Positions 3,085 to 48,315 of a stretch of 64,000 nucleotides of DNA are shown in pieces. Position numbers and translations under genes: made by a program. The stretch is from contig JACPCP010000015.1 in assembly GCA_016179745.1 (NCBI GenBank), positions 45,608 through 109,607 on the forward strand. The letters are read 5' to 3'. The first letter of the stretch is position 1, and every line of letters begins with the position of its first letter. The stretch comes from Candidatus Omnitrophota bacterium. GTDB lineage: Bacteria; Omnitrophota; Omnitrophia; Omnitrophales; JACQLI01. The notes below the pieces were generated by a model. That model had not been told where the DNA came from and made no database searches. It was given only the letters and a program-made list of their open reading frames with translations.

Positions 3085-3192
3085 AGCTCTGCAACGATCG
3101 TTATAAACTGTTATGCCTTGCTAGCGTTTCTTAGAATGAAGTCCCTCCAACTCCAGGAAATTTTAAGACTTTTTTGAACCCGTTCCCGGATT

Positions 3193-6100
3193 GTGATAAG
3201 ATTCCTCCCAACTTTCCTTACGAAGGCGAACAACTCCTTGTTTCGTAAAATCATCAGCCTAACTATCATTTTGACTCTGATCGTCAATCCGGCTTCTTTC
3301 GCCGGTTTTTCTCCCCCTCCTTCTGTTCGGGCAGTTACTGCCGGCGAGAGTCTGGATTCTTTTGTGACGGTCAGCGATTTCTTTATTCCCGGAACGGGAA
3401 AAACCAGTTTTGAAACAGCCCTTTTGGACCCCCGCCAGCCGCTCCTCCTTTATCTCGAAGACGCTCACGGGAACCTCTCCGCCCAGAGGCATATCACCCA
3501 GGCCCTGGATTGGATTTCAAAACAGGCGAAGCTCCGGGAGCCGTGGATCGCCCTGGAAGGGACCGGGCCGGGTGAAATCGACCACCGGGTCTTATCGGCG
3601 TTTCCTCACCGGCCGGCGAGAATGGACGTGGCAGAAAAATTCCTCCGGCAAGGCCGGCTCAATGGGGCCGAATATTTTGCTGCCTTGAACCCAAACGTCC
3701 GGCTCTTCGGCGTCGACTCCGAGGTGCTGGCTGAGCGGAACCGCCGGAAATACCGGGGCCTCGCACGGCTTCAGCCGGAAACCGGCGGCCCTCTCTTGAG
3801 GCTGATTCGGGCGAGTCAGTTTCTCAAGAAAAAAATCTACTACGGCGATTTGGTGCGGCTTGATCAAAGCGCCGTTCAGTTTGAACAAGATTCCAGGAAT
3901 TTATTGAAGCACCTCGCTCTTCTTCGAAATCTTGCCAAAAGGAAAGGTGTTTCATTAGACAAATACCCGCATCTTTCAAGCGCCCTGAGGGGCCCTGCCC
4001 CTTCTTTGTCGGGCTCCCTCAATGCGGCCGAGACCCTCCTGGAGATTCGCCGCCTCACAGAGGACTTGTGGAAAAAGCTTCTTGATTATCGTGAGGCACG
4101 GGACGCCTTTTTTATGGACAGGCAAGTAAAGTTTTATCAAAAGCTTTTGAGTTGTTCTCTCCTGCCGGAGGATTATTCAAAATACGTTAAAGACCCCAGG
4201 GGTTATTCGCTGGATTCGCTGAAGAGACGGACCCAGCTTTACCATTTTTTGCTGCGCCCCGAATCGCTCCGTCCCCGAAAGGGCGACTTTGAAGCATTGG
4301 AAATCGCTTCCCAACCGGCCCTGGAATTTTATGAACTGGCCCGCAAGCGGGATCAGTTTCTCATTGCCAACCTCGAGGCCCTGGTTCCCAAGGGCCCGAG
4401 CCGAAAAACTTTCTTCATCTCCGGCGGCTTTCACCGTCAGGGTGTTAGCTCCCTTCTGAGATCGAAAGAAATCCCTTTTGCAGTCCTCACTCCGAAGATT
4501 ACCCAGTCGGGAGGAGAGGAAAATTATCGGCGTCTCCTGGCTCAGACGTCCGCCGTTAATCTAAAGTCGAGTTTCCGTATCCCTGAGTTTAGGAATAAGT
4601 TTCGGCGGGCCCTCTTGACTTCATTGCGGGCAGATCCTTTTCTTCCTGACGGGACGAAGATAAGAATTCTAGAACGGTATAGGAAGTCCTTTCCTCCCGA
4701 ACTCATCTCCATCTCCAGGAGCGAAGTGCGCAATCCGGAAATAAGCCCTCTTGTTCTTACAAACGATAAGAGCCGGGATGCCGCAGTCAACCTGATTCAA
4801 TTTGGTGAAGCGCTGATTGACCGGGTGGGGCAATCAGCGGGCTCTGGAGAAGCCCCGGTTCCTTTGAATGGAGCTCTTCTTAAAGGGTTTTTCAAGTCCG
4901 CCTTTCACTACATGACAAACGACCCGAAAAATCCTGAGAGGATCCTTAATCTGGCCGAGACCTTCATGGGGGCCTGGGAGGGATGGGAATGGGAGGTTCG
5001 TTTCGGGAAATATGAAAGGCCTTACCGGGTCACCCGGCCTTTTGACCCGGGGGAGGGGAAGCCGGTCTGGAGAGAGAAGAGTCTCCTCATCGAGATCGAT
5101 CGGGAAACGCTCCGAAGATTTCAGTCGAACCAACTGGCCGAGTTCTACCTGGCAACCACATTTTTCGGCCGCCTCCTTTTTGGGGCCCTGTCGAGCGACA
5201 GGAACAAGATTGATCTCCGGAGGGCCGAAGCGGAGGTAGCGGCCGCCCTCCTTCGGAGTTTTAAAAATTCCGAAGAGGAAAAACGCAGCTTTGCGGGAAA
5301 CTTTCTTCAGGCCTTAATGCAAACTCAACAGACGGCCCTCGCCACAGAGATCCGTTCGAGGCTCACCCGTCAGTCCAGGGGGAAAGTGAAGCTGCAGAAC
5401 GGACGGATTGAGCTCGGTGAACAGCTTGGGAAGGGCGGGTTTGGCACGGCTTACGAGGCGGTCTTGGGAAGGCTCAAGGTTGTCGTCAAAAAGGCGGAGG
5501 GGGCATCGCTTGCGACCTCCGAAGGGAAGGCTCGATACGATCGGGAGGCCCAGATTATTGCCGCCTTTGCTCAAAGAGGGTTTACCAATCTCGTGGGCTG
5601 GCGGGAGGATTTTAAAGAAAATGGGGAACAATACACCGTGATGGATTTTGCCGAGGGAAAACCGCTTTCTGATCTTCTTCCACTGCTGACCGAGAAGGAG
5701 GCCATCGAGGTATTAATTGAAACCGCAAGGGCGCTTGAGCAGATGAACAGCATCGGCGTTTTTCATCGGGACGTGAAGCCGGACAACATTATCGTTCACT
5801 GGGACTCCAGGACTCGAAAGGTCCTGCAGGTCAAACTGATTGATTACGGCCTCGCCAAGATTTTTAACTGGGAACTCGCCAGGCAAGCCGGTATCCAACC
5901 AAGCCGTTTTGTCGATGAAGAAACCGGCGAAGAGAGGTCGCAGACCCAATCCGGAACCGGCATGGGGACCCCCGGCTACATGTCTCCCGAACAGGCGCAG
6001 GGCGAGCAATCCAAGCTGGGTCCCCAGACCGACTACTATGCGCTCGGTGCCATGGCCTATGAAATGAAGGCAGGCTACAAGGCGGGCGATCCGCCGTCCA

Positions 6101-39890: not shown

Positions 39891-39900
39891 TAGCTATAAT
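39871..39900 (+). promoter_or_regulatory. nuo promoter (TTGCCT-18-TATAAT)
   Basis: TATAAT lies at 39895-39900 and the first ATG at 39909, with no SD between them. Confidence 0.5.
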
Positions 39901-40253
39901 TGTCTCCCATGTTTGGAATCCTGATTACCTTTGTCCTATCTCTCGCTCTGGCCGGGACTTTCATTGCCTTGGCCGTCGTCCTGGGCCCCAGGCGTCCGGA
40001 CCCGGTGAAGGCCGAGCCGTTCGAATGCGGTGAGGCGCCCTTTTCCCTCCCCGAGGCGAGGCGCCCGGTCCGGTTTTACCTCACGGCCATGCTCTTTGTC
40101 CTGTTTGATGTGGAACTGGTTTTTTTCTTTCCCTGGGCCGTGGTCTATCGCCAGCTCGGGCTCCCCGGTTTTTTTGAAATGCTGGCCTTCCTTTTTTTTC
40201 TCACCCTCGGATTCGCTTACGCCTGGAAAAAGGGAGCCCTCGAATTCAAATGA
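39900..40253 (+). CDS. nuoA: NADH-quinone oxidoreductase subunit A
   Basis: PFECGE motif and three TM helices. The start is either TTG at 39900 or, more likely, ATG at 39909. Confidence 0.9.
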   Translation: MSPMFGILITFVLSLALAGTFIALAVVLGPRRPDPVKAEPFECGEAPFSLPEARRPVRFYLTAMLFVLFDVELVFFFPWAVVYRQLGLPGFFEMLAFLFFLTLGFAYAWKKGALEFK

Positions 40254-40735
40254 ATTCTTTCCAAGAGGACACGCCGAGTTCGCCTGCGGGATTTTTTACC
40301 TCCAAGATCGAAGAAATGGTCGGCTGGGCCCGCAAGTTTTCGATCTTTCAATACCCCTTTGTTACGGCCTGCTGCGGAATGGAATATATGTCCGTGGCCT
40401 GCTCTCACTACGATATCGACCGCTTCGGAGCAGGCCTGCCCCGTTTCTCGCCCCGCCAGTCCGACGTCTTGATGGTGGTCGGGACCATCTCCCACAAGAT
40501 GGCCCCGGTCCTCAAAAAAATTTACGACCAGATGACCGAACCCAAGTGGGTCGTGGCCTTCGGGGTCTGCACTTGCACAGGCGGCTTCTACGACAATTAC
40601 GCCACGGTGATGGGGATCGACACGATCCTTCCCGTGGACGTTTATATCCCCGGCTGTCCGCCGAGGCCCGAGAACGTTTTGGACGGTCTGATGAAATTGC
40701 AGGAAAAAATCCAGAAGCAAAAACAGTTCACTTGA
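40250..40735 (+). CDS. nuoB: NADH-quinone oxidoreductase subunit B
   Basis: ACCGMEYM and GCPPRPE (N2 cluster ligands). ATGA overlap with nuoA. Confidence 0.95.
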   Translation: MNSFQEDTPSSPAGFFTSKIEEMVGWARKFSIFQYPFVTACCGMEYMSVACSHYDIDRFGAGLPRFSPRQSDVLMVVGTISHKMAPVLKKIYDQMTEPKWVVAFGVCTCTGGFYDNYATVMGIDTILPVDVYIPGCPPRPENVLDGLMKLQEKIQKQKQFT

Positions 40736-41220
40736 TGGGAAAGATACTCGACCGGTTAAAAGAGAAGTTGGGCGAGAGCCTTCTCGCCTCGCACGAATTC
40801 CGGGGCGACGAGACCGTGGTCGTCGGGCGGGAGGCATTGCTTGAAGTGACGCGTTTCCTCAAGACCGATTCGGGGCTTGATTTCAATATTCTGATGGACC
40901 TCACGGCCGTTGATTATCTTACCTGGGGCGAAGCCCGGCCCCGCTTCGAAGTCGTTTATCACCTCTACTCTCTTAGCAAGAATCATCGCGTCCGGATTAA
41001 GGTGCCGGTTGAAGAAAAAGATCCCGTCGTTCCGTCGCTGACCACAATTTGGCCCGCCGCCGATTGGTATGAGCGGGAGGTTTGGGACATGTTTGGAATC
41101 CGCTTTCCGGGCCACCCGAACCTCAAACGGATTTTGATGTATGAAGAATTCGCCGGGCATCCGCTTCGGAAAGATTACCCCGTCACGAAACGTCAGCCTC
41201 TGATCGGCCCCAAAAATTAA
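40735..41220 (+). CDS. nuoC: NADH-quinone oxidoreductase subunit C
   Basis: DLTAVDY, WYEREVWDMFGIRFPGHP and PLRKDYP. The start overlaps the nuoB stop. Confidence 0.9.
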   Translation: MGKILDRLKEKLGESLLASHEFRGDETVVVGREALLEVTRFLKTDSGLDFNILMDLTAVDYLTWGEARPRFEVVYHLYSLSKNHRVRIKVPVEEKDPVVPSLTTIWPAADWYEREVWDMFGIRFPGHPNLKRILMYEEFAGHPLRKDYPVTKRQPLIGPKN

Positions 41221-41223
41221 ACT

Positions 41224-42500
41224 GTGGAAACTCGAAACATGATGCTCAACATGGGACCGGCGCACCCGGCCATGCACGGCATTATTCGTCTGATCCTTGA
41301 GCTTGATGGCGAGAATGTCGTCAACACGGAGGTCGAGATCGGCTACCTCCACCGGGCCTTCGAGAAAATGTCTGAGCAGTCGGGCTATCTTCAGGTGATC
41401 CCCTACACCGACCGGCTGAATTATGTTTCTCCCGTTATCAACAATGTCGGTTACTCGATGGCCGTGGAAAAACTGTTTGGGATCGAAGCGCCGGAGCGGT
41501 CCCAATACATCCGTGTCATCCTGAGCGAGCTCTCCCGGATCTCGGACCACCTGACCTGCATTGGGGCATCGGCGATGGAGCTTGGGGCCTTCACAGTCTT
41601 TCTCTACCTGATGAAGGCCCGTGAATTTCTCTATGAACTGACCGAATCTGTGACGGGCGCCCGGGTGACTGTTTCTTATGTCCGGTTCGGCGGCGTGAAG
41701 GCCGATTTGCCGGAGGGTTTTGAAGAGAAGGCAAAAACGGCGGTCGCCGAAACCCGGAAGGTTTTAAAGGAATGCGACCGGCTCCTCACCCGCAACCGGA
41801 TCTTTGTGGACCGGATGAAAGGCGTGGGCGTCATTTCAAAGGAAGACGCCCTGGCCTACGGCATCACCGGGCCCTTCCTCCGCTCGACCGGTGTCGATTA
41901 CGATGTCCGGCGAACCTGGACCGCTACCTTTGCCGAATGGAGGAGATGGAACAGAGCTTGAGAATTGTCGAGCAGGCCTTGAAACAAATTCCCGGGGGGG
42001 CGATCCAAGTCGATCTCGAGGGGAAAGTGATTCCGGCGGCGGCCGCTTGTGACGAGGCAAAAATGGGACGGGTGGAGGCTTTGGCCGGGGCCCGTGTCGA
42101 GCCCGACGTCACGCTGGAAGGCGCCCACAAAGACCAATACCCCGGCCTGCAAGCGCCGGAAAAACGGGCGGTCCTCCCGGCCAAGGAAGATACCTACGGC
42201 AATATTGAGGGTCTGATGAACCACTTCAAGATGATCATGATGGGCCCCGGATTTGGGATGGGGAGTCACGGAATTTGTCCGCCGAAAGGGGAAGTTTATC
42301 AAGCTGTTGAGGGTGGAAATGGAGAGTTGGGATTTTATGTCGTGAGCGACGGCACGGGCCGGCCCGTCCGGGTGCGTGTCCGGCCTCCCTGCTTTCCGAT
42401 TATGGCGGCGCTTCCGATCTGCCTTCGGGGCGGCCTGGTTGCGGATGTGGTCGCCACGTTCGGCTCTGTCAATATGATCGGAGGAGAGCTCGACCGATGA
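41224..42500 (+). pseudogene. nuoD: NADH-quinone oxidoreductase subunit D, split into two overlapping ORFs by a frame-breaking internal deletion
   Basis: ORF 41224-41961 ends its homology at ...GVDYDVR. ORF 41772-42500 resumes at ANLDRYLCRMEEMEQS in another frame. About 22 conserved residues (PY..Y...F.VP....GD) are missing at around 41908-41913. Confidence 0.75.
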
Positions 42501-44296
42501 ACGTGGCGGAAGGAGTGTTGACCGTGGAGATTCGGAAAAAAGCGGAGCCCGTCCTCCGTCGTTACGCCACGAAACGGGCGGCGATCCTTCCCGTCTTAAG
42601 ACTGCTTCAGGAGCGCTACGGTTACATTCCCGAGGAGGCGGAAGGGGAGGTGGCCGATTACCTTGAAATTCCTGTGATCGACGTGCGGGAAGTCCTCAGT
42701 TTTTACACCCTCTTTCACCGGAAACCCGCCGGAAAGATTTGCCTCAATGTCTGCCGGACACTTTCCTGCCGATTGGCGGGAAGTCAGGAAATTTTGAAGG
42801 GCCTTGAAGACCGGCTTGGGATCCAGGCCGGCCAGACCACGCTGGACGGCCGGTTCACGCTGGAATCCGTCGAATGCCTCGGCGCCTGCGAGCTGGCTCC
42901 GATGATGGAGGCGAACGGTGTCTATGCCGGCCCCTTGACCGAAAAGGGGCTTGAGCAATGCCTGGCCGGACAACCGGAGAAAGGGGAGCAGAGGATCGAA
43001 GGGTCTGCCCCCGCCGGGACCGATTCGCCGGTGAGATTAATTTCCAAATTCTTCGAACGGGGCCGGACTTATTTCCTTGACGATTACGTGAAGGAAGGCG
43101 GCTACGAAGCGCTCCGGCAAGTCCTCGAAAAATTCAAGCCGAACGACTTCATCGAAGAAGTCAAAAAATCCAACCTCCGGGGCCTGGGCGGCGCCGGCTT
43201 CCCGGCCGGGATGAAGTGGAGCTTCGTCCCGAAGAATACCGGCAAGCCCGTCTATCTCGTGGTCAATGCCGATGAAGGCGAGCCCGGCACCTTCAAGGAC
43301 CGATACATCCTGGTCAACGCCCCGCACCTTCTTCTCGAGGGGATGGCCCTTGCGGCCTACGCCAATTCGGTTGAGAAGGCCTTTATTTATGTGAGGGGCG
43401 AATATGAAGAGCCCTGCCGGATTCTTTCGAAGGCCGTCGAGGAGGCGGAGGCCGGGGGGTTCCTCGGGAAAAATATTTTGGGAAAAAATTTTAATCTCGA
43501 GATTGTCCTTCACCGGGGCGCCGGCGCTTACATTGCGGGCGAAGAAACGGGGCTCCTGGAATCCCTTGAAGGAAAAAAGGCCTTTCCGAGATTGAAGCCG
43601 CCCTACCCGGCGGTGGTGGGGCTCTTCGGCTCGCCGACCGTGATTAATAATGTCGAAACGCTTTCTTACCTTCCTTTTGTCGCAAAGATGGGCGCCGAAG
43701 CCTTTGCCGGGCTGGGTTCACCGAGAAACGGCGGCCTCCGGCTTTTCAGTGTCTCGGGCCACGTGGCCCGGCCCGGGGTTTACGAGCGGCCGCTCGGCTA
43801 CCCCTTGAGGAGATTAATCGACGAGGCCGGCGGGGTCCGGGCGGGACATCAGATCAAAGCCGTGGTGCCGGGCGGGCTTTCGGCGGCGGTCTTGAAGGCG
43901 GATGAAATTGAGGTGGGCCTTGATTTTGACCAGTTGAAGGCGGCCGGAACGATGGCAGGCTCGGCCGGAATTATCGTGATGGATGAGACGACCTGCATGG
44001 TGGAGGCCTTGACGGTCACGATGAGTTTCTTCGGCCATGAGTCGTGCGGCCAGTGTTCGCCCTGCCGGGAGGGGACGGGCTGGGTCGCAAAGATTCTGAA
44101 ACGAATCTGCGAAGGCCGGGGCCGGGCGGGCGATATCGATACCCTTCTCGATTTGGGGGCCTCGATGAGCGGGACCACGATCTGTGCCCTGGCCGACGGC
44201 GCTGCCATGCCTCTCGGGAGCTACCTCAAAAAATTCCGCTCCGAATTCGAATTCCACCTCCGTGAAAAACATTGCGACGTCAGGGAGAATAAATAA
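42497..44296 (+). CDS. nuoF: Fused NuoE-NuoF subunit (2Fe-2S thioredoxin-like domain plus the FMN/NADH-binding 51-kDa subunit)
   Basis: The N-terminal NuoE part has CRTLSC...CLGACELAP. The NuoF part has GLGGAGFPAGMKW, VNADEGEPGTFKDR and ESCGQCSPCREG. 599 aa. Confidence 0.9.
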   Translation: MNVAEGVLTVEIRKKAEPVLRRYATKRAAILPVLRLLQERYGYIPEEAEGEVADYLEIPVIDVREVLSFYTLFHRKPAGKICLNVCRTLSCRLAGSQEILKGLEDRLGIQAGQTTLDGRFTLESVECLGACELAPMMEANGVYAGPLTEKGLEQCLAGQPEKGEQRIEGSAPAGTDSPVRLISKFFERGRTYFLDDYVKEGGYEALRQVLEKFKPNDFIEEVKKSNLRGLGGAGFPAGMKWSFVPKNTGKPVYLVVNADEGEPGTFKDRYILVNAPHLLLEGMALAAYANSVEKAFIYVRGEYEEPCRILSKAVEEAEAGGFLGKNILGKNFNLEIVLHRGAGAYIAGEETGLLESLEGKKAFPRLKPPYPAVVGLFGSPTVINNVETLSYLPFVAKMGAEAFAGLGSPRNGGLRLFSVSGHVARPGVYERPLGYPLRRLIDEAGGVRAGHQIKAVVPGGLSAAVLKADEIEVGLDFDQLKAAGTMAGSAGIIVMDETTCMVEALTVTMSFFGHESCGQCSPCREGTGWVAKILKRICEGRGRAGDIDTLLDLGASMSGTTICALADGAAMPLGSYLKKFRSEFEFHLREKHCDVRENK

Positions 44297-44684
44297 TGCT
44301 TAAGGAGAAATTCTCCCTTCCCCTCCGCCCGGGCCTCACTTCAAGAAATCTAGGGGATTCCGGGGACGGGGCCAGCCTGGACAGGCGGCCAGTCGCCGCT
44401 CGATCAAGCAGGCCCGAGCGGATGGCTCGGGCCCACCCGGTCCTATGCTTCAGCCCTTCGGCCGGGTTTTCCCATCCCCGGAATCCCAAGATTTCTAGGA
44501 CTGAACCGGCCCTGATGGGCGTCGGGGAAGGAGAATTTCTCCTTGGCAATGTTTCCACAGCAGAATCTCCCCAGCCTGGAGGCGCGAATCGCGTAGGATT
44601 CGAGAAAGTCTTGGACTGAGCGCCGAGAGGACTGGGGAGATTCTGCTGCGGATGAAACCGTTGAAAAGGCCCCGCCAATAATCC
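44297..44684 (+). repeat. Non-coding, highly self-complementary insert between nuoF and nuoG (nested long inverted repeats): a candidate structured RNA or MITE
   Basis: 44302-44323 pairs with 44524-44544 (21 bp, 1 bulge). 44344-44366 pairs with 44475-44496 (13+8 bp). There is a hairpin at 44411-44433 (9 bp). 44558-44574 pairs with 44632-44648 (17/17). Confidence 0.7.
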
Positions 44685-46169
44685 ATGGCTAAACTGACGA
44701 TTGACGGAAGAGAGATTACGGTGGAGGCGGGGACGAAGGTGATCGAGGCCGCCGAACGGCTCGGGATTTTTGTCCCCCGCTACTGCTACCACCCCGGACT
44801 TTCCATCGCCGGAAACTGCCGGATTTGCATGGTGGAGATTGAAAAATTTCCGAAGACCCAGATTGCTTGCAACACCGATTGCCTGGACGGCATGGTGGTG
44901 CGCACAGATTCGGACAAAGCGAAGGAGACCCGCCGCCACATTCTCGAATTCCTCCTTGCCAATCATCCGCTCGACTGCCCGGTCTGCGACCAGGCCGGCG
45001 AGTGCTGGCTTCAGGATTACTATATGAAGTTCGGCCTCTACGACGGCCGCTTCTATGAGGAGAAGGTCAAGAAACAGAAGGCTGTTTCGATCGGCCCCAC
45101 GGTGATGCTGGATGCCGAACGCTGCATCCTTTGCTCCCGCTGCGTCCGGTTCTCGGATGAAATTACGAAGACCTCCGAACTCGGGATTGTGAGCCGGGGC
45201 GACCACTCCGAGATTGCCGTTCACCCCGACAGGGAACTCGATAATAAATATTCCGGGAACGTCGTCGATATCTGCCCGGTCGGGGCGCTCACGGACAAAG
45301 ATTTCCGCTTCAAATGCCGGGTGTGGTATCTGAAGTCGGCCGACTCGATTTGCCCCGGCTGCGCCCGGGGCTGCAATATCCAAATCCATTACAACACGGA
45401 CCGCCCCCAGCACGGTTCAGGCGAGCGGGTGATGCGCTTGAAGCCCCGTGAAAATCCCGAGGTGAACCAGTGGTGGATCTGCGACGCCGGCCGCTACGGC
45501 TACAAATCGATCGACCACAACCGGATCGAAAGGCCCGTGGTCCGGAAACCGGACGCCGTTCAGGAAATGGACTGGCCCCAAATTCTCGACGAGGCGGCCC
45601 GGAAAATCCGGGAGGCAAAAGGAAAGATCGGCGTTTTTGTCTCCCCGCAGCTTTCGAATGAGGAACTGTCTTTGACCCGGAAACTGTTTTCCGGGGACCG
45701 GTTTCAGACTTTTCTTTTTTCGCCGAATCCCGAAGGGGACCAGGATGATTTCCTCATTCGCTCGGACAAGAATCCCAACACGAAAGGCGCCGAATTGATG
45801 GGGTTCAAAAGCACCGGTGTTGAGGCATTGTTCAAGGAGTGCGAGGAGGGAAAAATCGAAGGCCTCCTGATTTTCGGCCAGGACCTCCTCTCGCTGCTCG
45901 ATCCCCGGCGGGTCGAGCCGGCGTTGAACGATTTGTTATGGACGGTCTTCATCGGTCCCCATCACAACCTGATGTCCGAGGCGGCCTCTTACGTTTTGCC
46001 CTCGGCCGTCTACGCCGAGAAAAACGGCACCTTCACCAACTTTCAAGGAAAGGTCCAAAAGTTCAACCAGGCCCTCGAACCTCTCGGCCAGTCCCGTCCT
46101 GAAGGGGAAATCCTCAAGGACCTTGCAGACCGCCTCGGCGTAAAATTGAGTTTGGCGGCCACAGGATGA
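44685..46169 (+). CDS. nuoG: NADH-quinone oxidoreductase subunit G (short form, 494 aa)
   Basis: N-terminal 2Fe-2S (CYHPGLSIAGNCRIC), HPLDCPVCDQAGEC and CILCSRCVRF. Confidence 0.88.
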   Translation: MAKLTIDGREITVEAGTKVIEAAERLGIFVPRYCYHPGLSIAGNCRICMVEIEKFPKTQIACNTDCLDGMVVRTDSDKAKETRRHILEFLLANHPLDCPVCDQAGECWLQDYYMKFGLYDGRFYEEKVKKQKAVSIGPTVMLDAERCILCSRCVRFSDEITKTSELGIVSRGDHSEIAVHPDRELDNKYSGNVVDICPVGALTDKDFRFKCRVWYLKSADSICPGCARGCNIQIHYNTDRPQHGSGERVMRLKPRENPEVNQWWICDAGRYGYKSIDHNRIERPVVRKPDAVQEMDWPQILDEAARKIREAKGKIGVFVSPQLSNEELSLTRKLFSGDRFQTFLFSPNPEGDQDDFLIRSDKNPNTKGAELMGFKSTGVEALFKECEEGKIEGLLIFGQDLLSLLDPRRVEPALNDLLWTVFIGPHHNLMSEAASYVLPSAVYAEKNGTFTNFQGKVQKFNQALEPLGQSRPEGEILKDLADRLGVKLSLAATG

Positions 46170-47212
46170 TCACAATGGTTTTGATCCAAATCGTTCTGGC
46201 GGCGGGGGTGGTTCTTGCCGTCATCAGTTTTGCGGCGTTTCACACGTGGCTTGAGCGAAAACAGTCGGCCCTGATGCAGGACCGGATCGGGGCCAACCGG
46301 GCCACGATCTTCGGCTTTCGGGCCCTCGGCCTTTTCCATCCCCTGGCCGACGCCATCAAGATGTTTATGAAAGAGGATTTTATCCCGGCGAAGGCCGACA
46401 AATTCCTCCACACGCTGGCCCCCCTGCTTTCCTTGACCTTTGCCCTGGTGGCTTTTGCCGCCATTCCCTTTGGCGATGTTCTCAGGATCGGGAGCCTTGA
46501 AATCACGCTCCAGGCGGCCCCGATCAATGTCGGCCTTCTTTATGTCTTTGCGATGCTCTCGATGGGGGTCTACGGGGTGATCCTGGCCGGCCTTTCCTCC
46601 AACAGCAATTACGCCTTTCTCGGGGGCCTCCGGGCCTCAAGCCAGATGCTGGCCTATGAGATCACGCTTGGCGCCACGATCGTGGGCATTGTGATGATCT
46701 ATGGTTCATTGGATCTTCAGGAAATTGTCCGGAGGCAGGGCCATCTTCTTTGGGGTTGGCTTCCGATGTGGGGTTTCCTTGTCCAGCCGCTCGGGCTCCT
46801 CTTGTTTCTCACGGCCGGGATCGCCGAGACGAAGCGCATCCCCTACGACGTGCCCGAAGGGGAGTCGGAGATTGTGGGCTATTTTGTGGAATATAGCGGC
46901 ATGAAATTTGGGATGTTTTACTTCACCGACTTTATCGAGACGATCCTCATCGCCTCGCTTACGACGACCCTCTTTTTCGGCGGCTGGCAGGTGCCCTTTC
47001 TCCACCTCCTTCGCCTGCCTGGCCTGGCCGTAACGCTCGCCCAAGTCCTGGCCTTTATTTTAAAGGTTTGTTTCTTCTGCTGGCTTTTTATGACCGTCCG
47101 ATGGACGCTCCCCCGTTTCCGCTACGACCAATTGATGAATCTGGGCTGGAAAATCGTCTTCCCACTTTCACTGGCCAACCTGGTGGTGACGGCCCTGGTC
47201 CTTCTCTTTTAG
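46166..47212 (+). CDS. nuoH: NADH-quinone oxidoreductase subunit H
   Basis: ERK..A.MQDRIGANR, GVYGVILAGLSSNSNYAFLGGLRA and EGESEIVGYFVEYSGMKF. A polytopic membrane protein. Confidence 0.95.
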   Translation: MITMVLIQIVLAAGVVLAVISFAAFHTWLERKQSALMQDRIGANRATIFGFRALGLFHPLADAIKMFMKEDFIPAKADKFLHTLAPLLSLTFALVAFAAIPFGDVLRIGSLEITLQAAPINVGLLYVFAMLSMGVYGVILAGLSSNSNYAFLGGLRASSQMLAYEITLGATIVGIVMIYGSLDLQEIVRRQGHLLWGWLPMWGFLVQPLGLLLFLTAGIAETKRIPYDVPEGESEIVGYFVEYSGMKFGMFYFTDFIETILIASLTTTLFFGGWQVPFLHLLRLPGLAVTLAQVLAFILKVCFFCWLFMTVRWTLPRFRYDQLMNLGWKIVFPLSLANLVVTALVLLF

Positions 47213-47397: not shown

Positions 47398-48315
47398 TTG
47401 GAAACAATTCAAGATAGAGAAAGCGTGATAGCGAAAAAGAGATACAACCTTTGGGTGATTGTCTGGATCGTTGGGATGCATCTGGGGGCCCTCGCCGCCC
47501 CGTTTACCTTTACCTGGCCGGCCTTTTTCCTCTTTGCCTTCCTTGCCTGGCTCACCGGAGGCATCGGAATCACCCTTTGTTACCACCGCCTGCTCACCCA
47601 CGGCTCCTTTAAAGTCCCAAAATTCCTGGAATACCTCGTCACCTTTTGCGGCCTCCTGGCCTCCGAAGGAGGCCCTATCAACTGGGTGGCCCGTCACCGG
47701 ATCCACCACGCCTTTCCGGATACCGATAAAGACCCCCACAGCCCCCGCCACGGCTTTTGGTGGTCTCACGTCCTTTGGCTTTTTGTCCACAAACCGATTT
47801 TTGATAACTATGAGCTTTACTGCTCGTATGCCCCGGATTTGGCGAAGGATCCCGTTCACCAGTTTTTTAACCGCACGCACGGCCTCTATCAGATTCTCTT
47901 GGGGATTGCTCTTTATCTGTGGGGAGGATTCCCCTTTTTAGTTTGGGGGCTCTTTCTCCGGACCGTTTTTGTTTATCACGTGACCTGGTTCGTGAATTCC
48001 GCGACGCACAAGTGGGGTTACAAGACCTATGCCCTGAAGGATGACTCCAGCAATCTCTGGTGGGTCGCGCTTTTGTCGTTCGGAGAGGGGTGGCATAATA
48101 ATCACCACGCCTTCCAAACTTCAGCCCGGCACGGCCTGAAATTCTGGGAGTTTGACCAGACCTACCTCACCATTAAATTTCTCGAGCTCCTCCGCCTGGC
48201 GCGTGATATCCACGTTCCGAAGTTTCCGAAGCTGCCCCGCCCTCACCTCCCCTCTGTGAATTTGCCGAAGATCGAGAAAATTCCAGGCGTTCCTTCCTTC
48301 GAATCGATCGCTTGA
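47398..48315 (+). CDS. Membrane fatty-acid (acyl-CoA/acyl-lipid delta-9-type) desaturase
   Basis: Three His boxes: HRLLTH, HRIHHAFPDTDKDPHSP and HNNHHAF. TTG start after a GGGGG RBS. Confidence 0.88.
   Translation: METIQDRESVIAKKRYNLWVIVWIVGMHLGALAAPFTFTWPAFFLFAFLAWLTGGIGITLCYHRLLTHGSFKVPKFLEYLVTFCGLLASEGGPINWVARHRIHHAFPDTDKDPHSPRHGFWWSHVLWLFVHKPIFDNYELYCSYAPDLAKDPVHQFFNRTHGLYQILLGIALYLWGGFPFLVWGLFLRTVFVYHVTWFVNSATHKWGYKTYALKDDSSNLWWVALLSFGEGWHNNHHAFQTSARHGLKFWEFDQTYLTIKFLELLRLARDIHVPKFPKLPRPHLPSVNLPKIEKIPGVPSFESIA

Follow-up and report, generated by a model that had tools for sequence, protein, structure and literature searches.

Bacterial interspersed palindromic repeats are a known kind of element. 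REP units are 20-40 nt long and are linked to RAYT transposases, ERIC sequences have longer variants which arise from internal insertions, and Correia/NEMIS elements, according to what De Gregorio et al. reportedly found, are co-transcribed to give long double-stranded RNA cleavable by RNase III. ERIC sequences are about 127 bp long, with conserved terminal repeats and TA flanks, and their co-transcription can alter mRNA stability (PMC3184786). Correia elements are 104-157 bp long; their inverted repeats (26 bp) are conserved, their target is TA, and they contain promoters as well as an IHF site (PMC3184786). REP/BIME elements are located within operons and between convergent genes, and influence the stability of upstream mRNA (PMC3184786). 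The bcr1 element of the Bacillus cereus group is a mobile transcribed repeat of about 155 bp in which compensatory changes keep the structure and whose distribution varies between strains (PMC3184786).

The locus described here lies in a 64,000-nt stretch of DNA from a Candidatus Omnitrophota bacterium (the window, meaning the whole stretch that was analysed), where 388 nt separate nuoF from nuoG. This spacer is probably a member of a family of non-coding, hairpin-forming repeats, dispersed between the genes of Omnitrophota-like groundwater and subsurface bacteria, which behaves as a non-autonomous mobile element. It belongs to a family with members in both orientations, is absent from orthologous sites, has a mosaic anatomy and preserves its structure by covariation. 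The element is best read as comparable to the MITE, ERIC, Correia, REP/BIME and bcr1 elements. The family itself is previously undescribed; its large size, mosaic build, nested 60-nt module and strict pairing are distinctive, and each of these has a precedent elsewhere. An odd gap in a tight complex I operon would thereby be explained without a new regulatory RNA, and large, mosaic, structure-conserving intergenic repeats are documented in an uncultivated phylum. No paper was found in the full-text literature that connects MITEs or other repetitive elements between genes to Omnitrophota or Omnitrophica.

Like ERIC (IRU) sequences of the Enterobacteriaceae, which are of the MITE class, members of this family are imperfect palindromes in transcribed intergenic regions, often in operons and in either orientation. 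They differ from ERIC in consisting of a 176-250-nt unit accompanied by a second unit, in having termini that covary and are not conserved, and in lacking any similarity to it in sequence; nor could a TA duplication be demonstrated for them. With the Correia/NEMIS elements of Neisseria the family shares the form of a dispersed, co-transcribed hairpin repeat beside genes that occurs in full-length and internally deleted versions; the Correia hallmarks named above (inverted repeats of conserved sequence, TA target, IHF site, promoters) were not found at the window element. REP/BIME elements are likewise G+C-rich extragenic palindromes arranged as mosaics of different units, but the 176-250-nt units of the window are 5-10 times larger than those of REP/REPIN. 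A precedent for a mobile repeat that retains its double-stranded structure via compensatory changes is bcr1, which differs in its 5-bp direct repeats at each copy, its two-hairpin cruciform, its Firmicutes hosts and the absence of sequence similarity; in the window family, direct repeats (4-5 nt) flank only a nested module, termed M below.

The nuoF-nuoG junction

The genes around the spacer are as follows (window positions).

39900-40253: nuoA
40250-40735: nuoB
between nuoB and the fused nuoE-nuoF: nuoC and nuoD
42497..44296, + strand: nuoE-nuoF fusion of 599 aa (Pfam 2Fe-2S_thioredx, Complex1_51K, SLBB, NADH_4Fe-4S), upstream neighbour of the element
44294-44296: TAA stop codon of nuoE-nuoF, which directly abuts the element
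44685..46169, + strand: nuoG of 494 aa (Pfam Fer2_4, NADH-G_4Fe-4S_3, Fer4_Nqo3, Molybdopterin), downstream neighbour
46166-47212: nuoH
47398-48315: fatty-acid desaturase gene, between nuoH and nuoI

Whereas the nuoA/B, nuoD/EF and nuoG/H junctions each overlap by 4 nt, nuoF and nuoG are 388 nt apart, and the spacer has a G+C content of 60% as compared with 55% for the whole window. Both the exceptional gap and the GC-richness had been pointed out in a preliminary description of this DNA, and both hold. The NuoF C-terminus and the NuoG N-terminus (MAKLTIDGREITVEAGTKVIEAA, which is alignable with relatives) are intact around the insert.

Proteins 100% identical to NuoEF are encoded on six Logan contigs and, as NCBI MBI2167354.1, in a Candidatus Omnitrophica MAG. 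The nearest other NuoEF proteins are 73-76% identical and come from four relatives, whose nuoF/nuoG junctions are arranged as follows.

L010: a gap of 74 nt between nuoF and nuoG that holds an unrelated small hairpin
L011: nuoF and nuoG 4 nt apart
L012: nuoF and nuoG overlapping by 20 nt
L015: nuoF and nuoG overlapping by 20 nt

None of these four junctions is similar to the element, and no conservation specific to the nuo locus is seen among them. The empty junctions in the relatives, together with the intact NuoF and NuoG ends, indicate that the 388 nt are a lineage-specific insertion, which hit a junction normally a few bases long in this lineage only.

In the window lineage and the relatives alike, nuoE and nuoF constitute one 599-aa gene; the NCBI record for NuoF gives 463 aa only, from an internal start. 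The desaturase gene between nuoH and nuoI is also present in the relatives L011, L012 and L015.

The structure of the spacer is far beyond chance. The minimum free energy of the + strand is -223 kcal/mol (z -10.5; 0 of 100 dinucleotide shuffles, which average -155 +/- 6.4, are as good), and that of the - strand is -234 kcal/mol (z -11.4); over the two strands the shuffles lie at about -155 to -159 +/- 6.5, and none folds as well. The preliminary description had drawn two domains of inverted repeats, an apical hairpin and a perfect 17-bp stem, and all are recovered at the same positions. Domain 1 includes inverted repeats at 44302-44322 / 44524-44544 (21 nt, 90% complementary), 44336-44364 / 44476-44504, and 44354-44370 / 44471-44487 (94%), and the apical hairpin (44411-44433) is present in the minimum-energy fold. 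The inverted repeat of domain 2, termed I2, lies at 44554-44574 / 44632-44652 (21 nt, 95%) and contains the perfect 17-mer.

A composite copy of a repeat element

Comparison with other copies of the family and with R1, a covariance model of the first hairpin, divides the spacer into the following parts.

44296..44651, + strand: whole family-shared sequence (D1 + M + D2a), defined by all-against-all BLAST of 16 copies
44297..44548, + strand: D1, a single long imperfect hairpin, defined by the minimum-energy fold and model R1
44374..44433, + strand: module M, 60 nt long and inserted into the apex of D1, defined by presence/absence comparison of copies
44554..44652, + strand: D2a, the second hairpin unit, whose arms are 44554-44574 and 44632-44652, defined by inverted repeat I2
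44653..44684, + strand: nuoG leader, beyond the BLAST-defined family end and mostly single-stranded in the minimum-energy fold

The shared extent runs from 8 nt before the start of the D1 model (44304), i.e., about 44296, to +348 (44651). The element is non-coding and about 356 nt long, a size within that of MITEs (less than about 600 bp). The window copy is a composite of D1, the nested M, and a D2a which is shorter by 100 nt.

The outer stem of D1 is formed by TGCTTAAGGAGAAATTCTCC... paired with ...GGAGAATTTCTCCTTGGCA, and the consensus of the hairpin is GGAGAAAATTTCTTCCCCCTCCGCGGGCCTC...AAGAAATCTAAGGGATTCCGGGG.TGGGGCCCACCCGGTCC...GGCCGGGTTTTCCCATCCCCGGAATCCCAAGATTTCTAGGA...TCGGCCCTGATTGCTCCGGGGAAAGAAATTTTCTCC. 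R1 matches the window copy at 44304-44542 with 130 bits (E 5e-31), as compared with just 55 bits on the reverse strand. The basic D1 hairpin is about 176 nt long and has grown to about 250 nt in the window copy. Module M contains the hairpin GGCCCGAGC-GGATG-GCTCGGGCC and has the direct repeat GGGCC on either side, at 44369-44373 and 44429-44433. It is missing in L017 and in 13 of 13 short D1 copies, and is present in L016, which comes from another metagenome and represents the same locus as L017. Related 60-nt modules occur elsewhere in D1: those of L016/L017 lie on the left side of the basal stem and that of L021 on the right side, always with constant polarity. M has the look of a micro-element that can move or be deleted on its own.

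D2 comes in two types, a type a of about 200 nt and a type b of about 330 nt. D2a is bounded by CAGAATCTCC...GGAGATTCTG and is seen at full length in L017, L019 and L037; relative to L017, the window D2a is without 100 nt of core at about 44614 (in BLAST, q318 joins L017 positions 996 and 1097). Several copies carry additional solo left arms ahead of D1. BLAST shows no similarity to other copies in the final ~33 nt upstream of the nuoG start codon. The first ~12 nt of this leader resemble by eye CGGAGAAA, a motif found after the right arm of D2 elsewhere, and the true right end of the element may therefore be near 44664.

D2b (L018, L022, L025, L029, and L030 at about 3150-3460) has GGCAGAATCTC...GAGATTCTGCC as its bounds; asymmetric blocks that are conserved (GGCGGCGTTGGG, CGAGCGAGGCCGACTCAAACCGT, TTTGGAATAC and CGTCGGCCGAGCG) surround a variable A+T-rich core. 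It has no Rfam match, and a sigma-54 or sigma-70 promoter in the D2b core of other copies was weighed by eye and is not supported. In one subfamily (L021 and L030, e.g., L030 around 3150 and 3650), the hairpin is lengthened by an outer inverted repeat, GTAAG(CG)TGAGTGGCAGG ... CCTGCCACTCACGCTTAC, which encloses D1 or D1+D2. This outer repeat (GTAAGCGTGAGTGGCAGG) may resemble the ends of IS66-type elements, which begin with GTAAGCG.

Dispersed copies and maintenance of pairing

A pattern scan of JGI metagenomes, using as pattern a block identical across four copies, together with BLAST and model R1, yields 16 distinct sites for the repeat family, all of them between genes and from metagenomes of groundwater and the subsurface. 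The copy located after nuoK and before nuoL (L016/L017) is 95-96% identical to the window copy, and that between purF and purM (L018) about 80%. Three of the copies lie on a single contig of 19.9 kb (L030). At nuoK|L, the junction is filled in L017 and empty in L055. Dispersal over 16 sites and presence/absence differences between relatives, at nuoF|G and nuoK|L, are the behaviour of a MITE. The orientation relative to the genes is mixed.

Same strand as the genes: nuoF|G, nuoK|L, purF|purM, gatA|gatB, parE-like|hicB-like and four others
Antisense to the genes: coxB|coxA (COX2|COX1), GT9|GT9, folB|mgtE, MFP|AcrB, atpD|atpC and a copy beside ubiA

The preliminary description had listed among its candidate identities a MITE- or REPIN-like insertion and a structured RNA belonging to complex I. 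The former is borne out by the empty junction in four relatives and the recurrence at 16 unrelated intergenic sites. The latter, as an RNA specific to nuo, is not supported, since the element is not conserved at the locus, occurs in both orientations and belongs to no Rfam family.

Within the 64-kb window, where the preliminary description had advised a search for multiple copies, BLAST, a motif search and R1 (including runs with filters off) detect D1 just once. Other R1 matches there are terminator-like hairpins of 40-50 nt and not D1. Multi-copy status in the window's own genome is suggested from assembly breaks. Logan assemblies are built with k=31, and k-1 is the distance at which a break is expected where the graph enters a repeat; six independent Logan assemblies of the window organism all end 29-30 nt into the left end of the element. 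At least one further copy is thereby suggested for those samples, although the copy itself was not recovered. For a corresponding right-hand break, exact-product look-ups of NuoG, NuoH and P0001 gave none on record. As the window is without nuoJ and nuoK for comparison with the host of L017, the 96%-identical nuoK|L copy (L017) may or may not come from the same genome. In the window's clade, nuoJ-N are at a separate location, beside the atp genes (L037, L055).

Among GTDB genomes, an exact 21-mer yields three single chance matches in unrelated taxa; as this pattern represents the window variant only, it says little on distribution. D1 was not found in viral contigs, in which 16-mer matches are due to chance.

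Pairing is maintained across the copies. R1 was built from 12 copies, the window copy not being among them, and RNAalifold on 12 independent D1 copies yields 55 pairs with 95.8% of cells paired. Eighteen of these 55 pairs have changes on both sides, as compared with 4.8 +/- 1.7 when the columns were shuffled (18 was reached in 0 of 500 shuffles) and with 4-6 pairs in a control in which the partners were slid by 1-3 columns. Terminal helix 1 is the most variable part, with compensation in 9 of its 17 pairs. The preliminary description had looked to covariation among homologous nuoF-nuoG spacers; it is strong, and is a property of the dispersed copies and not of those spacers. That description had also been prepared to give up its reading if covariation and further copies were lacking, and the 18 compensated pairs and the 16 sites speak against this on both counts. 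With covarying stems and invariant loops, the family is a clean test case for the upkeep of pairing in hairpin repeats.

Every copy has inverted repeats as its termini; these are variable in sequence, and the invariant blocks lie in the internal loops and the core. Variable, compensated termini are the opposite of a transposase-bound terminal repeat, and hence the classical MITE label applies only with reservation. No consistent direct repeat or target-site duplication is seen at the D1/D2 boundaries in BLAST ends and by reading of the flanks. Because it is the stems that covary, around internal loops that do not change, the family might spread via a folded single strand or a cruciform recognised by a putative mobilising enzyme. 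The near-complete pairing in all copies could alternatively reflect selection at each site for a host function.

Expected read-through of the element and alternative readings

No promoter-like site is present around the window copy, and no terminator-like site in 44297-44684 on either strand; the spacer is thus not an intrinsic terminator. As the element is located inside the operon and is without termination signals, transcription must carry it along in the nuo mRNA, and read-through is expected. The nuo transcript would then form two very stable hairpin domains at the element. The coupling of nuoF and nuoG by overlap, as in relatives, would be lost, and nuoG would initiate on a separate leader of about 30 nt that is unpaired in the predicted fold. 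For a mobile repeat of this kind, the hairpins in the nuo transcript would be at most incidental landmarks for RNase III or 3'-exonucleases and not a dedicated regulator. The repeats mark points where operon mRNAs may be processed, and a role in RNA processing or stability, the third candidate of the preliminary description, might arise as a by-product of the insertion.

A more specific form of mobility is considered unlikely. Instead of a classical element with a transposase and TIR, D1 would be a module for mobility or recombination whose folded single strand is recognised by its structure, as with integron attC sites or IS200/IS605 ends, by a putative enzyme of Omnitrophota-like bacteria. 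The 60-nt M would be hopping within D1, and the host may have co-opted the nuo, cox and atp copies as RNA processing points.

There is a similarly small chance that the window copy has been exapted as a cis-acting RNA. Its hairpins would split the nuo polycistron, with an RNase III cut or a barrier to 3'-exonucleases setting different stabilities and stoichiometry for nuoA-F and for nuoG onward. The intra-operonic position, transcription, the very stable stems and the lack of a terminator-like site are all consistent with such a role, as are the almost perfect pairing throughout the copies and the many copies at junctions in housekeeping or respiratory operons (nuo, cox, atp, gat and pur). Co-transcribed ERIC, Correia and REP elements that alter mRNA stability provide a precedent (PMC3184786). 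However, the same operon works without the element in relatives, the window copy is damaged by truncation of D2a and insertion of M, and the copies of the family are in both orientations, some of them outside operons.

That the family consists of structured ncRNA genes, trans-acting or protein-binding, with D1 as the functional RNA, is very improbable. Strong covariation, invariant and asymmetric internal loops and the clear polarity of R1 (130-206 bits forward, 48-68 bits reverse) would fit this idea, as would two conserved G-U positions on the modelled strand. Apart from these two positions, counts of G-U versus A-C give no consistent strand signal, and the reverse strand is more stable as RNA in 11 of 12 copies; a functional RNA on the gene-sense strand is thus unsupported by either the counts or the folding energies of the two strands. 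In addition, large modules are gained and lost among the copies, and the window copy is without a promoter-like or terminator-like site of its own. The Rfam search proposed in the preliminary description gives no family: with Rfam 15, nothing in the window is near the gathering score, and nothing at E<=0.1 is found across the loci of the 16 other copies. The best match in the window, mir-3473 (both strands), scores 33.7 bits against a gathering score of 71.8 and is rejected as a generic long-hairpin match. The mixed orientation, the stability of the reverse strand and the lack of an Rfam family, promoter or terminator together point to an interspersed palindromic DNA element which the host tolerates in either orientation, and neither to an RNA gene nor to a riboregulator specific to nuo.

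A decayed or novel small protein gene between nuoF and nuoG, i.e., the 107-aa ORF (44296-44619, the sole ORF of the spacer) or an antisense ORF, is effectively refuted: the frame is open and similar ORFs have been called on other contigs (P0121-P0123, P0125), but it matches no Pfam family, its only relatives in databases are translations of other repeat copies in different contexts (three matches among public proteins), 1-nt indels break the frame among copies, some of which have stops in every frame, and substitutions track base-pairing and not codon structure. The preliminary description had rightly judged this ORF to be non-coding. Repeats of this kind are miscalled as hypothetical proteins (P0121-P0126), and they interrupt short-read assemblies, as in the six that end at the edge of the element.

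Several further observations were made on contigs with pattern matches and on the nuo cluster. No transposase or autonomous parent of the family was identified; the one candidate, L033, was considered on account of two inverted pattern matches 2.4 kb apart, but these are a chance 21-mer only, and the contig is otherwise unrelated. At 1480-1660 and 3920-4100, L033 has long inverted repeats of about 180 nt around 2.3 kb, which are probably those of an unrelated insertion sequence. In L034, a small GIY-YIG nuclease gene (463-753) is located directly downstream of a solo D1 copy.

In the window, nuoD (about 41175-42500) is split into two frames (ORFs 41224-41961 and 41772-42500), which in this MAG contig is either an assembly error or a genuine 64-nt deletion variant. 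At 41912|41913 within nuoD, the Logan contigs L001 and L002 of the window organism have 64 extra nt and are otherwise 100% identical on both sides; the extra nucleotides encode STPYLVYDRLDFEIPVGTTGD and yield an intact NuoD of 441 aa.
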